Shown here piece after piece: positions 2,554 through 53,837 of a stretch of 53,837 nt of DNA. The position numbers and the translations under genes are program-made. The first letter of the stretch is position 1, and each line of letters starts with the position of its first letter. Under the pieces are notes generated by a model. That model worked only from the letters and a program-made list of their open reading frames with translations. It did no database searches and was not told the DNA's origin. This DNA is from an uncultured Eubacteriales bacterium (lineage in GTDB: Bacteria > Acidobacteriota > Aminicenantia > Aminicenantales > Aminicenantaceae): the NCBI GenBank assembly GCA_964445575.1, contig CAYULB010000004.1, forward strand, positions 21,631-75,467. The letters are read 5' to 3'.

Positions 2554-2621
2554 TTGACAATTCATCAGAAAAATATATATTATATTTCTATAACTTGCCA
2601 ATAATGGTAGGAAATAGAAAT
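2554..2621 (+). promoter_or_regulatory. Putative sigma70 promoter and autoregulatory inverted repeat of the abiE operon
   Basis: TTGACA at 2554-2559 with TATATT/TATTAT 16-18 nt downstream. Inverted repeat 2584-2600 / 2605-2621 (13 of 17 matching) runs into the start codon. Confidence 0.55.
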
Positions 2622-3261
2622 GATTTATGGAGAATTGATAGATCTCTTCGGAGACAGACCGTTTTTTGAAAGTGATGAAGTCCACATCCTCTTCAAAGAA
2701 CCCCGGGGACAAATAGAAGCACGCCTCTCACGTTGGGTGAGTAAGGGAAAACTGCTGAAACTCCGAAACAAGAAATACCTTCTTCCCGAAAGATATCGAA
2801 AGACTGAACCTAATCCTGGCTATATCTCTAATTTTTTATACAGGCCATCTTACGTCAGTTTAAGAACAGCTCTTGATATTTACGGATTTATTCCCGAATC
2901 AACCTATCTGTACGAAGCTATCACTCCAAAGAAAACAGCTGTCTGGAAAACACCTATAGGTATTTTCACGTATCATTCCTTAAGAAGGGAGAGGTTCTGG
3001 GGATACACCTTGTATCCGGAAACAAGAAGCACTCATTCCCAGGAAAATTTCATGCTGGCAGAACCAGAAAAGGTTTTTCTTGACCTTTTTTATCTCATCA
3101 AAGGAGAATGGACTGAGGAGAGAATTGTGGAGATGAGGTTCCAAAATCTGGAGAAAGTCAAAAGAGCAAAACTTCTTGATTACTCAAGGCGTTTCAACAG
3201 CCCTAAAGCAAACAGAGGGATCCATCGGTTCATAAGGATTCACAAAGAGGAAATAGAATGA
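2620..3261 (+). CDS. Type IV toxin-antitoxin antitoxin, AbiEi-like
   Basis: N-terminal wHTH-like LSRWVSKGKLLKLR, PSYVSLRTAL..YGFIPE, AEPEKVFLD; 4-nt overlap with the AbiEii-like gene. Confidence 0.8.
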   Translation: MIYGELIDLFGDRPFFESDEVHILFKEPRGQIEARLSRWVSKGKLLKLRNKKYLLPERYRKTEPNPGYISNFLYRPSYVSLRTALDIYGFIPESTYLYEAITPKKTAVWKTPIGIFTYHSLRRERFWGYTLYPETRSTHSQENFMLAEPEKVFLDLFYLIKGEWTEERIVEMRFQNLEKVKRAKLLDYSRRFNSPKANRGIHRFIRIHKEEIE

Positions 3262-4058
3262 AAGAACAGGCTTTATCCATAGCAGCAGAGGAAAAAGATC
3301 CCCGGCTTTCTCTTAATAAATTAAGAGAATATCTTCATCATGTGATTCTTAGAGAACTGTTTGAACAGAACGTACTTGATGAACTCGTTTTTCACAGGGG
3401 CACAGCCTTAAAAATCCTTTATGATTTGAGAAGGTTTTCAGAAGATTTGTATTTTCACTTAAAAGAGAAGGGCCCTTTTAATTTAAAAAGCATTGCCCAA
3501 AAGATAAAAAAACATTTGGAAATGCAGGGCTATCAGTTGAGTTTAAAAGGAAGCTCTGCAGGTACAGTTCAATCCGTTTTTATCAAATTTGAGAGAATCC
3601 TTGATCAAGCTCATCTTACAAGCCAGAGAAGAGAAAAATTCAGAATAAAAATCGAAGTGGATACGAATCCTCCCCAAGGATTTCGCACAGAATCCTCTTT
3701 AGTGCATAAATACTTGCCGTTCGGGGTTATCCATCATGATAAAACTTCATTCCTTGCAGGAAAATTACATGCTATCCTTCAACGTTCTTATACCAAAGGA
3801 AGGGATTATTATGATCTCTGGTTTTATCTGAGCAAATGGAAGGATATTCTTCCTAATCTTCTATACCTCAATAATGCGCTCAAACAAACAGGTTTTAAAA
3901 GGTCCACTCTCAAAAAAGAAAACTGGAAACAAATCACTGCGGAAAGAATGAAAGAAACGGATTGGGATTATGTGGTAAATGATGTCAAGCCCTTTCTTGA
4001 AAACCAGAATGACATAAAAATTTTCACTAAACAGACTCTCCTAACACTGCTCAGCTAA
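3258..4058 (+). CDS. AbiEii/AbiGii-family nucleotidyltransferase toxin, probably catalytically impaired
   Basis: FHRGTAL..Y..RFSEDLYF (family consensus F-x-GGTAL and RFSEDLDF), IKIEVD, KLHA, KGRDYYDL. Confidence 0.8.
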   Translation: MKEQALSIAAEEKDPRLSLNKLREYLHHVILRELFEQNVLDELVFHRGTALKILYDLRRFSEDLYFHLKEKGPFNLKSIAQKIKKHLEMQGYQLSLKGSSAGTVQSVFIKFERILDQAHLTSQRREKFRIKIEVDTNPPQGFRTESSLVHKYLPFGVIHHDKTSFLAGKLHAILQRSYTKGRDYYDLWFYLSKWKDILPNLLYLNNALKQTGFKRSTLKKENWKQITAERMKETDWDYVVNDVKPFLENQNDIKIFTKQTLLTLLS

Positions 4059-4250: not shown

Positions 4251-4301
4251 TTATATAGTTTCCATCTTTGCTATCAAATTATAGCAATCGCAGTACTTAT
4301 A

Positions 4302-4471
4302 TTAATTTGAAATCTTCTCTTCCTCAACCATCTCATACTGATAGACTTTGGCCTCACTGTAATTCAGGAGCAGATGCTGGTTTCCATAGGCCCAGAGGCA
4401 ATCAAAACAAAAGCTTAAAAACAAACAATAAAGATAATAAGAAGGATTTTGTTTCCCTCTTTCATTTTCAT
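4302..4471 (-). pseudogene. Frameshifted remnant of an exported protein
   Basis: GAGGA RBS then MKMKEGNKILLIIFIVCF* whose hydrophobic stretch continues in another frame (SFCFDCLWAYGN...). Confidence 0.35.
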
Positions 4472-4592
4472 TTTTTATCCTCAACATGATACTTGACCAC
4501 ATCCACTGTTCCTTCCTCATTGTATTCTCTAAAGAATAAAGAGTTCTTATGTGTCGCGATAAGCGTTCCTCTCACATTCGGACGTTTGGTTT

Positions 4593-4686
4593 TAAATTGT
4601 AAATTGGGGTTGTAAATTGGGGTCGGGCCCGTGTAAATTGTGTAAATTGGGTATGTAAATTGGTAAATTGGGGTCGGGCCCGGCTA
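4593..4686 (+). repeat. Stutter array of truncated TGTAAATTGGGGTCGGGCCCG units ending in core GGGGTCGGGCCCGGCTA
   Basis: Six or seven units of 5-24 nt read directly; core at 4670-4686 is identical to 53816-53832. Confidence 0.85.
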
Positions 4687-4786
4687 TTTCCTTAAATTAC
4701 AGTAACATAGGTAGAGATTTCCACAATATTAATCCCTAATAAGAGATTCATTATGAGGACAAAATATCCCTCTTATAGATTGATTG

Positions 4787-4816
4787 TTGACCCCTCCTGC
4801 CTGTAATTTGTATAAT
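4787..4816 (+). promoter_or_regulatory. Putative sigma70 promoter
   Basis: TTGACC-N18-TATAAT upstream of an AAGGAG RBS and the small membrane ORF. Confidence 0.4.
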
Positions 4817-4965
4817 GATTTATAAAATGGGGTTAGATAATGTGAGATCAATAAAACAAAATAATGAAACACAATTCAAACCCAAAGGAGAACCGCCCAT
4901 GAAAAAAGCATTATCACCTATCATCAGTAATCCTAATATTCTTCACTTATAGTTAGCCATAGGCG

Positions 4966-5250
4966 ATGGACACCGCTTCTTTTAAGAAAATTTTAATCGG
5001 CATCATTGTCTTTTTGGCAACCTGGTTTGTGAGTGTGATACTCGTCTTTGTGGCTGTTATTGTTATTAGTTTCGCTCTTCGCAATCATCCTTCCATGAAT
5101 CTTGAGATGGGTTGGATAGCTGTGATTATATTGATTCCACCCGTCGCTGGAACAATCCTCTCCATCCCTCTGTCGATTTTTATAATAAAAAAGACAAACA
5201 AAAAGATAGAAACAAAAAAGTTTAGAAATTCGTCCCCAAAGAGAAGTTAA
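4966..5250 (+). CDS. Small hypothetical membrane protein (2 TM helices, basic tail)
   Basis: Two hydrophobic stretches followed by a Lys-rich C-terminus. Confidence 0.5.
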   Translation: MDTASFKKILIGIIVFLATWFVSVILVFVAVIVISFALRNHPSMNLEMGWIAVIILIPPVAGTILSIPLSIFIIKKTNKKIETKKFRNSSPKRS

Positions 5251-52525: not shown

Positions 52526-53719
52526 TTATTTGTTTTTGATGGAGAACCGGTAAGACTTTTTCTCCTCACAGAATCTCTTTAAAAACTCAAGCTCTTCTTC
52601 CACCCAATCCCGGCTCTTAAGGATATTTTTAAGTGAATAAACATCCACCGCACACACCTCATCCCATCTCCCCATTTCCTTTAACGCCGCTTCCAGCTCT
52701 TCTCTCTGTTTTGTGTTTTTCCCGGGAAACAAAGCATCTGTGTATTCACTGACCGAGACTTTTTTCTCAGAACCAAAAACAGTGGAGACCCCCTCTCTCT
52801 CACAAAAAGAAAGCAGGGCTTCCTCCATCTTTTGAAGCTTCTCTTGAGCTTCTTTCTGCTTTTCTTTAAGCTCTTCCTTTATGCGAACATATTCATCCAC
52901 CAGCTTTACTCCCGGGTCATCAAGATACTCATTCTCATCTTTCTCTTTAAGTCCTGCTTCATGCTTCCACTCCGGGCAAATCGTCCTATAGGAACACCAG
53001 TCACAAAGCGCAGAAACTCTGGGGGGGAAATCCTCCTCCTCCTCAATCATTTTGATCTCTTCAATGACCTCTTTTCTCAGCTCTTCAAGCTCCTCATTCG
53101 TCCGGAACGATTCCATCTCCATGTCAAAATTAAGAAAATGCCACACCAGACGGGCTTTTTTAAAGTCTTTAAACTGCTCTTGGACCCATAAGGAATAAAG
53201 GGCAAGCTGCCGGTCTTTATCCAGCTTTTCCTGTTCCATCAAAGAACCACCGGTTTTGTAGTCATGCACTTCATAAAAGCCGTTACCCCGGTACATAAGT
53301 CGGTCTATTCTTATGTGAAACAAATATTTTCCCTCTTTATCAAGGGGCAGAAAACTTTTAGTCTCAAGCCCGATGACACGGCCCTCATCAAAGGGAAAAT
53401 GCCGTTGGTAATAATCTGAAAGCTGTCTCTCCCCCATTCTGCGGTAATTTTCTTCTGTGTAGTCATCCTTGATAACCACCACACTGTCTCCCCATTTCTC
53501 ATGCCAGATTTGTTTGAAGTAGGCTAAAAGTTCATCTAGAGTTAGGAGCTTCTCATGCAGTTTATCCCGGTAAAGCTTTTCCAAAGCCTCATGTACCCGG
53601 GAACCAAGAAAAGCTTCCACTGTCTCAGCTTCTGGTTTGATTCTGTCAATGTAAGCATACTTGTACTGAAGCGGACAGGTCTCATAGGTTCCAATTCTTG
53701 ATATGCTGAAAGCTGACAT
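52526..53719 (-). CDS. PD-(D/E)XK nuclease, Cas4/AddB/RecB-like, with iron-sulfur staple and C-terminal helical extension
   Basis: S.S....Y..CP, G..VH..LE, IDRL, DYKTG, QLALY, CDWCSYRTICP. ATG at 53719 (TTG 53728 is an alternative). Confidence 0.85.
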   Translation of the reverse strand: MSAFSISRIGTYETCPLQYKYAYIDRIKPEAETVEAFLGSRVHEALEKLYRDKLHEKLLTLDELLAYFKQIWHEKWGDSVVVIKDDYTEENYRRMGERQLSDYYQRHFPFDEGRVIGLETKSFLPLDKEGKYLFHIRIDRLMYRGNGFYEVHDYKTGGSLMEQEKLDKDRQLALYSLWVQEQFKDFKKARLVWHFLNFDMEMESFRTNEELEELRKEVIEEIKMIEEEEDFPPRVSALCDWCSYRTICPEWKHEAGLKEKDENEYLDDPGVKLVDEYVRIKEELKEKQKEAQEKLQKMEEALLSFCEREGVSTVFGSEKKVSVSEYTDALFPGKNTKQREELEAALKEMGRWDEVCAVDVYSLKNILKSRDWVEEELEFLKRFCEEKKSYRFSIKNK

Positions 53720-53761
53720 TTTAAACAATCCTTATTGAAACATTTGATTTATCCTTCTCCC

Positions 53762-53832
53762 GGCCTGGCCTCCGCCTCCGGGGTCGCCTCCGGCCGCCTC
53801 CCTCGGGCCGCCTCCGGGGTCGGGCCCGGCTA
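53762..53832 (+). repeat. Stutter array of truncated GCCGCCTCCGGGGTC units ending in core GGGGTCGGGCCCGGCTA
   Basis: Units read directly; core 53816-53832 identical to 4670-4686. Confidence 0.85.
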
Positions 53833-53837
53833 ATTCT

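Follow-up and report, generated by a model that had tools for sequence, protein, structure and literature searches.

Variably truncated junction duplications at the outer tips of a TIRtron repeat family and their possible origin in the action of a Y1 tyrosine transposase

What process writes the same short junction again and again, each time cut off at a different point, and on one side of a conserved core? This question is raised by a 53,837-nucleotide (nt) stretch of DNA from an uncultured bacterium of the Aminicenantaceae (contig CAYULB010000004.1, positions 21,631 to 75,467), which we call the window. Directly before a 17-nt core, the window carries an array of head-to-tail, variably truncated copies of the sequence leading into that core; we refer to such copies as stutter. 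A first-pass annotation had called the array telomere-like and a candidate for an undescribed system, in which a trans-acting enzyme, for example of the HUH/RAYT type, would recognise the core. We analysed the locus in its own genome (G000, 2.43 Mb, in which the window is C4:21631-75467) and in related genomes. The core proved to be the outer tip of a dispersed repeat that belongs, together with a Y1 HUH transposase gene, to a TIRtron, and short duplications were found on the outer side of such tips in several phyla. Judged from the sequences, there is about an even chance that the stutter is a by-product scar of repeated tyrosine transposase action at the tip.

Direct reading of positions 4300-5000 agreed letter for letter with the units listed in the first-pass annotation. 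These are TGTAAATTGGGGT (4598-4610), TGTAAATTGGGGTCGGGCCCG (4611-4631), TGTAAATTG (4632-4640), TGTAAATTGGG (4641-4651) and TATGTAAATTG (4652-4662), followed by GTAAATT (4663-4669) and the complete 17-nt core GGGGTCGGGCCCGGCTA (4670-4686). The array as a whole occupies 4593..4669 on the forward strand, and the flank/tip junction is present in it in at least five copies, truncated to varying extents. In its units, a suffix of the flank (..TGTAAATT) is joined to the first part of the element tip, with a length of 1, 3, 4-5 or 13 nt. The longest of these truncated tips (GGGGTCGGGCCCG, 13 nt, 4619..4631, forward strand) has one mismatch to the 14-nt core pattern and is followed by a restart of the flank. 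In our exact tandem-duplication analysis, the last duplication of the array had a period of 8 and extended 2 nt into the tip.

The identical core had also been noted 49 kb away behind a different flank, and the 17-mer is indeed found at 53816-53832 behind a stutter array of its own (53761..53815, forward strand). Here the flank ends in ..CCTCC, and the core continues it for 7, 2 or 0 nt (CCTCC+GGGGTCG, CCTCC+GG, ...); the tip prefixes of 2 and 7 nt are accompanied by an internal tip fragment. Tandem Repeats Finder (TRF) reported the rows 53772-53818 and 53787-53815, and 34 of the 60 nt upstream of the core were covered by 6-mers of the local junction. The second tip (53816..53837, forward strand) continues past the window into an assembly gap, and its junction is repeated beyond the gap at C4:75581-75597. 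The TRF periods overlapped in both arrays (13, 9, 8 and 21 in the first, 12 and 14 in the second), so neither array has a fixed period, and the earlier distinction from fixed-period slippage repeats was borne out. With up to two mismatches, the 14-nt core occurred three times in the window against 0.14 expected, a number reached by none of 100 shuffles.

We compared the first array with Logan contigs from four runs, which represent four samples of one microbial-mat study, and one of these samples may be the source of this DNA. There were 0 differences and 0 gaps over positions 4508-4853 or more. The array is therefore no artefact of this assembly; these data, being contigs, are unable to show rare length variants. 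In two of the runs (X3 and X4), high-depth contigs were identical to window positions 4327-5000 and diverged leftward of 4327, so that a related strain has the same array with a different upstream sequence.

The 17-nt core is the outer tip of a non-autonomous dispersed repeat of ~100 nt. The 17-mer with up to two mismatches was found 17 times in G000 (10 forward, 7 reverse), compared with 0 for the reversed control, and a looser scan gave ~20 loci after copies repeated across N gaps had been merged. All copies in this genome have ~100 nt in common downstream of the core. Genome scans and a consensus drawn from 108 distinct copies in this genus gave GGGG[T/A]CGGGCCCGG.. for the tip (4670..4686 in the window, forward strand) and GGGGACGGGCCCGG..AT..TCAATAA..TAAC..TTTTCCACAG..CCCTG..TTTTTGGGGCCAAAA for the repeat, in which the only palindrome is one of 8 nt at the tip and there is no GTAG head. 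At one orthologous site the element is present in G008 and the site is empty in G000 and G002, which gives a unit of ~105-115 nt. The window contains a diverged full-length copy (4670..4772, forward strand, with an approximate inner boundary from the alignment of copies). The palindrome CGGGCCCG had been regarded as a feature of the core. It is lineage-specific, the tips of relatives reading GGGGTCGGACC or GGGGTCGGGCCA, and is therefore not the conserved feature.

Assembly gaps in this genome fall exactly at tips, and the junction found before the N run is repeated after it (window 53833-53837/C4:75468-75580; also C8, C20, C75 and C94). Many copies lie at contig ends or gaps, and several contigs start or stop in a tip; the tips fragment short-read assemblies. 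Copies can also be clustered in a common orientation. G005:C10:33005-70260 has 12 copies in 37 kb, 10 of them on one strand, and G003:C44:36-20852 has seven in 21 kb, all on the same strand. Such clusters hint at local spread or at a bias relative to replication direction.

We then asked how common the stutter is among the copies. In G000, a coverage score was calculated as the share of the 60 nt upstream that is covered by local-junction 6-mers. Among 34 pattern matches, 10 reached the 99th percentile of 5000 random positions, and all ten were family copies; none of 17 chance matches (two mismatches, without the downstream box) did so. In six related genomes, the junction 7-mer recurred exactly within 100 nt upstream at 26 of the 100 copies that had the downstream box and a readable flank. 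The stutter architecture was found in at least seven related genomes.

A stricter test required an exact tandem duplication with at least two full copies, a period of 7-90 and a periodic region spanning the outer junction. By this test 56 of 260 tips were positive, and the control offsets of -60, -40, +25, +40 and +60 nt gave 2, 6, 8, 4 and 2 of 260. For G000, the family tips scored 6/15, other GGGG[TA]C sites 0/1349 and GGGG[TA]CG sites 0/137, with 8/2698 for WWWGGGG and 9/3000 for random positions. Since bare GGGG[TA]C(G) sites carry no duplications, the sequence itself is not slippery. The expectation that stutter would be found on the 5' side only was confirmed, duplications being confined to the outer side both in this test and in comparison with a mirrored inner control.

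The same pattern was found far beyond this genus. Our scan of relatives, with one genome per species, used the best 80 of 258 protein relatives. The closest of them come from records labelled Candidatus Aminicenantes. Genes with 46-55% identity occur in Desulfobacterota, Gammaproteobacteria, Nitrospirota, Acidobacteriota and others (phyla as given by the record labels), and they are flanked by inverted tips of the form GGGG[T/A]CGG[G/A]CC at ~100-120 nt from the open reading frame (ORF). For pairs of at least 12 nt, most left tips lie ~100-120 nt before the start codon (positions 1370-1400, where the ORF begins at 1501). On the right, the ORFs end at ~2140-2300 and the majority of tips close to position 2320. 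The junction 7-mer recurred upstream at 41 of 150 tips in other phyla, compared with 4 of 150 in the mirrored inner control. Striking arrays were seen at L166, L190, L210, L151 and L175. Stutter is also present in records labelled as cultured isolates (Desulfospira joergensenii DSM 10085, L207; Granulosicoccus sp. 3-233, L215) and in an assembly with 2.5-Mb contigs.

The 56 exact duplications had periods of 7-31 nt with a mode of 8. Their inner breakpoints were clustered in the G-run and after GGGGWCG: the duplications ended 1, 2 and 3 nt into the tip in 8, 16 and 10 cases (34 in total). A further 11 ended at 4-6 nt and 8 at 7 nt, with none at 8-12 nt and one each at 13, 15 and 25 nt. Longer duplications, which take in up to ~50 nt of the element, exist at G000:C2, L127, L071 and L050. 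By eye, the outer breakpoints showed no consistent base at the restart points. The last 9 nt of the flank are A/T-rich, and C makes up at most 7% there against 21% in the background; no fixed flank tetranucleotide was found, the commonest being TTAG in 7 of 59 low-stutter flanks.

Microhomology at the joints was close to that of random joining (0, 1 and 2 nt in 32, 10 and 7 of the 56 events, and longer in the other 7), and six of the eight events that break after GGGGWCG had none. The variable position 5 of the tip shows where the units come from. When units reached tip position 6, 39 carried the A/T variant of the local tip, one carried the other variant and four had another base. The units are copied from the local junction.

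Orthologous loci with the same subtype of element were compared between species. At the right tip of the transposase gene, stutter is absent from G003 (L051), and G004 (L050) has two units, one of them with 13 nt of tip. L094 has none and the array of its counterpart L119 is complex; one unit is present in L115 and none in L038 or L078. In the groups A (counted over the three members that share the subtype), B and C, no member had stutter. Because same-subtype orthologous tips differ in their stutter state, the units were added after insertion and in a lineage-specific manner. The 5-30 nt adjoining the tip vary between species, and the farther flank and the element align; these hypervariable stretches often stand directly past stop codons.

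The first-pass annotation had stated that the window encodes no HUH enzyme, and had suggested looking for a gene of this kind next to copies of the core. Our genome-wide Y1_Tnp search agreed with the statement and gave one such gene. The genome's single Y1_Tnp gene, for a RAYT-like Y1 HUH transposase of 252 amino acids (C4:76338-77093, reverse strand), lies ~0.9 kb past the last base of the window with an assembly gap between, and it stands between two inverted tips that face outward (C4:76275, forward; C4:77294, reverse). The match to Y1_Tnp (PF01797) had an E-value of 8.5e-11 and 42.5 bits, with a cut-off of 23, and all 31 homologues matched as well. The best NCBIfam match was REP_Tyr_transpos (NF047646; E 1e-20), which was also the top family for 31/31 homologues. 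The HUH motif H60-I-H62 and Tyr121 (in YIDLNMVRAG) align with HMH and YIYINPVKHG of the E. coli TnpA_REP 4ER8, in an alignment that is weak (E 0.15 for the single sequence, 0.21 for the profile). Among the 31 homologues H62 and Y121 are invariant and H60 is conserved in at least 90%. The protein has a C-terminal extension of ~100 residues with conserved R192, W196 and G203.

Within G000:C4:75446-78937, an outer pair of inverted tips (75582, forward; 78936, reverse) encloses a 3.3-kb segment that contains a 4HBT thioesterase gene, the transposase gene with its inner tip pair, a UvdE UV-endonuclease gene and a DUF6506 gene. Nested tip pairs of this kind could reflect the capture of neighbouring genes. 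The orthologous gene is likewise bracketed by inverted cores in G005 and G004.

We also examined the co-occurrence of gene and core in 41 related genomes, with an orthologue defined by at least 67% identity. Seven genomes had an orthologue, namely G000, G002, G003, G004, G005, G008 and G021, and they had 17, 1, 30, 19, 26, 13 and 7 cores, respectively; the G002 orthologue is partial, at a contig end, and adjoins the only core of that genome. Of the 34 genomes without an orthologue, 25 had zero cores. Six genomes of the same order had one core match each, in a GC-rich context and without the downstream box, which we have taken as chance. G001 and G010 each had one real core copy without an orthologue. 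The enzyme that had been proposed to act on the core is therefore tied to it by association, through the flanking inverted cores, this co-occurrence and the homologues in other phyla; that it makes the stutter is the inferred part of the proposal.

Y1 enzymes of the HUH superfamily cut single-stranded DNA, become linked to the 5' phosphate and leave a 3'-OH. At the tips described here, the enzyme would nick the strand that ends in ...CCG[A/T]CCCC-3' a few nt inside the tip, either within the C-run or 7 nt in. The tyrosine would stay linked to the 5' side, with a few tip bases and the flank, and the element would keep a free 3'-OH. Host polymerase could then extend this 3'-OH outward by ~5-20 nt, displacing the enzyme-linked strand, after which the extended 3'-OH would attack the phosphotyrosine link and reseal the strand. 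One strand would have gained an extra copy of a segment that begins j nt inside the tip and ends i nt out in the flank. On being replicated, this copy would be fixed as a tandem duplication. Repeated rounds with varying i and j would produce variably truncated junction copies on the outer side only. The scheme requires that any extended 3' end is able to reseal. It predicts four features that were observed: only the outer side is duplicated, the inner breakpoints are clustered and the outer ones free, microhomology is not required, and the units take over the local variant. What points to nick-and-rejoin is that the duplications are one-sided, that their inner ends cluster and that microhomology is lacking, and the stutter is most simply read as a tyrosine-transposase footprint.

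Related chemistry has been studied in the repetitive extragenic palindrome (REP) system. According to the sections of the report consulted, TnpA_REP forms a 5'-phosphotyrosine link and leaves a 3'-OH, and any added oligonucleotide with a 3'-OH resolves the link in vitro (PMC8266576). In the model of Ton-Hoang et al. (2012), host polymerase extends the 3'-OH and the new 3'-OH attacks the Tyr-5'P, by which a tandem unit of a bacterial interspersed mosaic element (BIME) is added (PMC3333891). For the in vivo reaction, those authors describe mechanism and frequency as unknown (PMC3333891).

Several observations weigh against a transposase origin of the stutter. Most tips have no exact junction-spanning duplication, 74 of the 100 Aminicenantes copies with the downstream box lack a recurrence of the junction 7-mer, and part of the 56 events is expected as background (2-8/260). 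Breakpoints at 1-3 nt lie in the G-run, where a stalled polymerase would also stop. The contigs of the four samples showed no length variation, so the process is slow or currently inactive. The transposase falls below the equivalog cut-off of NF047646 (74.1 against 80 bits). Known RAYTs cut at CT or CA beside hairpins with a GTAG foot, and none is visible here. G009 has six tips, several of them stuttered, and an orthologue was not found in this 87% complete genome; past activity or a missing contig would explain this case.

The main rival is replication slippage at a roadblock. In this explanation, the enzyme bound to the tip, another protein or a small structure stalls a fork arriving from outside; the nascent strand halts a few nt into the tip, realigns upstream and recopies the junction without any covalent chemistry. 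The inner breakpoints become fewer with distance from the boundary and break off abruptly beyond 7 nt, as a fixed block would give, and the native flank in the window already has AAATTG twice. A common fork direction could also explain the one-sidedness, as the copies are clustered in the same orientation (10/12 '+' in G005:C10, 7/7 '-' in G003:C44). However, slippage needs pairing of the realigned 3' end, and of the 56 most recent duplications 32 have zero and 10 have only 1 nt of microhomology. The bare GGGG[TA]C and GGGG[TA]CG sites (0/1349 and 0/137) do not slip either, and both tips of one TIRtron, which would meet forks of opposite direction, can stutter (L166, L190 and L210). We consider the roadblock possible and rather unlikely.

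A second explanation places the duplications at the time of insertion, as a scar of untidy gap repair or of repeated insertion and excision at the same A/T-rich target. The A/T-rich, C-poor last 9 nt of the flanks point to target choice, and one site is occupied by a different element subtype in another species (L131 vs L028, L107 and L118), which suggests that sites are reused. Against this, same-subtype orthologous tips differ in stutter, including both tips of the transposase gene, the units copy the resident tip variant (39 to 1), and nested duplications of earlier units occur (period 21 at 4632-4672). An origin at insertion is therefore improbable.

The arrays could also be maintained for a function, as iteron-like binding sites, terminators, regulatory spacers or telomere-like arrays. 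The tip was flagged as terminator-like (a 5-pair stem with a T-rich tail), and many copies stand just past the stop codons of upstream genes. This idea is very hard to reconcile with units that differ in sequence at each locus, being copies of the local flank, and that are irregular in number and length; orthologous sites are often free of stutter, all loci are internal and no RNA family was matched. Finally, an assembly artefact or chance deserves hardly any weight: many copies do stand at N gaps that have one junction repeated on either side, or at the ends of contigs, where assemblers struggle, but the four per-run assemblies without a difference, the at least seven related genomes, the isolate records and the assembly with 2.5-Mb contigs speak against an artefact, and the shuffle and offset controls were far lower.

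The element and its stutter have to be placed among known systems. The first-pass annotation had taken the locus for an undescribed system at the DNA level; the unit of gene and inverted tips has already been named TIRtron, and its gene TIRYT (PMC3733652, PMC6006769). In the parts of their paper available to us, Di Nocera, De Gregorio and Rocco (2013) describe a RAYT-like gene between terminal inverted repeats (TIRs) with the tip motif GGGGWSAS, a near-constant distance between TIR and ORF, dispersed and moderately abundant TIR families and a distinct group in Acidobacteria (PMC3733652). Quentin et al. (2018), in the portion of their text seen, equated TIRYT with subclass 2.1 of TnpA_Y1 (PMC6006769). 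The core element and gene described here are a TIRtron: a single-copy TIRYT flanked by inverted repeats with their tips outward. The likeness lies in a Y1 HUH gene flanked at a similar distance by inverted repeats whose tips begin with GGGGWS, and in a dispersed family, which has ~20 loci in G000 and is represented by 13-30 core matches in each of four congeners. Compared with the motif GGGGWSAS as given in those parts of the paper, the tips GGGG[T/A]CGG fit at 7 of 8 positions, with G rather than A at position 7. Subclass 2.1 has C-terminal similarity to Bac_DnaA_C, HTH_23 or HTH_28, whereas residues 150-252 of our protein gave no Pfam match to these three at E up to 10, and helix-turn-helix families were found in the C-terminal 100 residues of 0/31 homologues (E up to 0.1).

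The repeat family also resembles REPtrons, in which the gene of a domesticated Y1 enzyme is present once and lies between inverted copies of a dispersed repeat. REPs are imperfect palindromes of 20-40 nt with a GTAG head; the unit here is ~100 nt, with an 8-nt palindrome at the tip and no GTAG. Our scheme shares cleavage, polymerase extension of the 3'-OH and attack on Tyr-5'P with the model of BIME amplification (PMC3333891, Fig. 7B legend), and BIME copy number differs between strains according to the part of the literature consulted. However, BIME amplification concerns whole REP/BIME units of tens of nt, bounded by specific CT or CA cleavage sites, whereas here the copies take in 1-7 nt (rarely up to ~50 nt) of tip together with 5-20 nt of unique flank, and no sequence preference is evident at their outer breakpoint.

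In IS608, cleavage of the right end leaves the 3'-OH on the element and the tyrosine on the flank. The IS200/IS605 family belongs to the same enzyme superfamily, and the polarity proposed here is like that of such a right end. Those elements are multi-copy and without TIRs, they enter the target on the 3' side of a fixed tetra- or pentanucleotide, and they make no duplications; here we found a single gene copy, TIRs, a target that is only A/T-rich, and duplications at the junction. Microsatellite and telomeric repeats likewise consist of short head-to-tail copies. In contrast to microsatellites and slipped-strand repeats, the stutter has no fixed period or unit, takes its content from the local junction and mostly lacks microhomology. 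The term telomere-like does not suit it either: telomerase adds a fixed unit, templated from outside, at the end of a replicon, whereas these loci are internal and their locus-specific units copy each local flank.

The text of the TIRtron/TIRYT papers, in the parts covered and with figures and supplements excluded, does not mention junction stutter. The full-text literature on RAYT/REPIN, HUH/Y1, TIRYT and REPtron/TnpAREP, within the portions searched and again apart from figures and supplements, contains no description of it. As far as searched, the stutter is a signature that is widespread at the tips of such elements and has not been described.

A broader proposition, which we hold with somewhat less than even confidence, is that TIRYT and RAYT-like enzymes act in vivo as nick-and-reseal 'scribblers', and that each abortive cycle at a tip writes a short, templated junction duplication without microhomology. 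If so, the arrays would be a cumulative record of enzyme activity that maps in vivo cleavage to the terminal C-run and to 7 nt in. They would give the first genomic evidence for a chemistry of cleaving, priming and rejoining, so far no more than a proposal for the amplification of REP/BIME, and an unrecognised enzyme-specific mutational signature would be present in bacteria of several phyla. If the stutter is a footprint, genomes would hold hundreds of natural events with breakpoints at base level, the cleavage sites and the strand would be a testable prediction, and the junction could serve as a simple reporter.

Other features of the repeat were also noted. The window copy has the box ATTTCCACA at 4717-4725 and a T/A-run motif at ~4751-4765. 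Of 180 tips from several phyla, 127 have a motif of the form T(4-7)-N(6-8)-A(4-7) at +75 to +79. Its T-run, 6-8 variable G/C-rich bases and A-run (+75 to +95) may form a small hairpin or a bent site; the two arms are invariant. In the Aminicenantes subfamily, a strongly conserved TTTTCCACA(G) box at ~+48 fits the DnaA-box consensus TTWTNCACA. We did not retain the idea of a DnaA box, because the motif is found in just 4 of 137 tips of other lineages and the C-terminus of the protein has no Bac_DnaA_C match.

An Rfam search of four loci at E up to 1 gave no family for the repeat and one chance match to a small nucleolar RNA elsewhere. The copies were also considered as prophage or att sites, a reading that we rejected since the core has ~20 loci, in either orientation, and the DNA between the window copies holds ordinary genes. 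GGGG...TAAG resembles the inverted repeats of the Tn3 family; this likeness was set aside, because no gene of the Tn3 type takes part.

A tip of a second family is located at ~48889 of G000:C3 (forward strand). It reads GGGGTCGCACCG.. and has its own stutter, GGTAATTAGGGGG TAATTAG. It resembles the tips at paralogous transposase genes in other Aminicenantes (L164). G000 has a single Y1_Tnp gene, and this tip may be an orphan repeat.

The genes next to the two arrays were inspected as well. The second array is abutted by a gene on the reverse strand (52526-53728) for a PD-(D/E)XK nuclease with a Cas4-like region (Pfam E 1.3e-37 and 4.8e-9), near which no CRISPR array was noticed. To the left of the first array, the gene at 3258-4058 encodes an AbiEii-type nucleotidyltransferase toxin (Pfam E 1.8e-19). 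It is overlapped from upstream by an ORF at 2620-3261, without a Pfam match, which may be its antitoxin partner.

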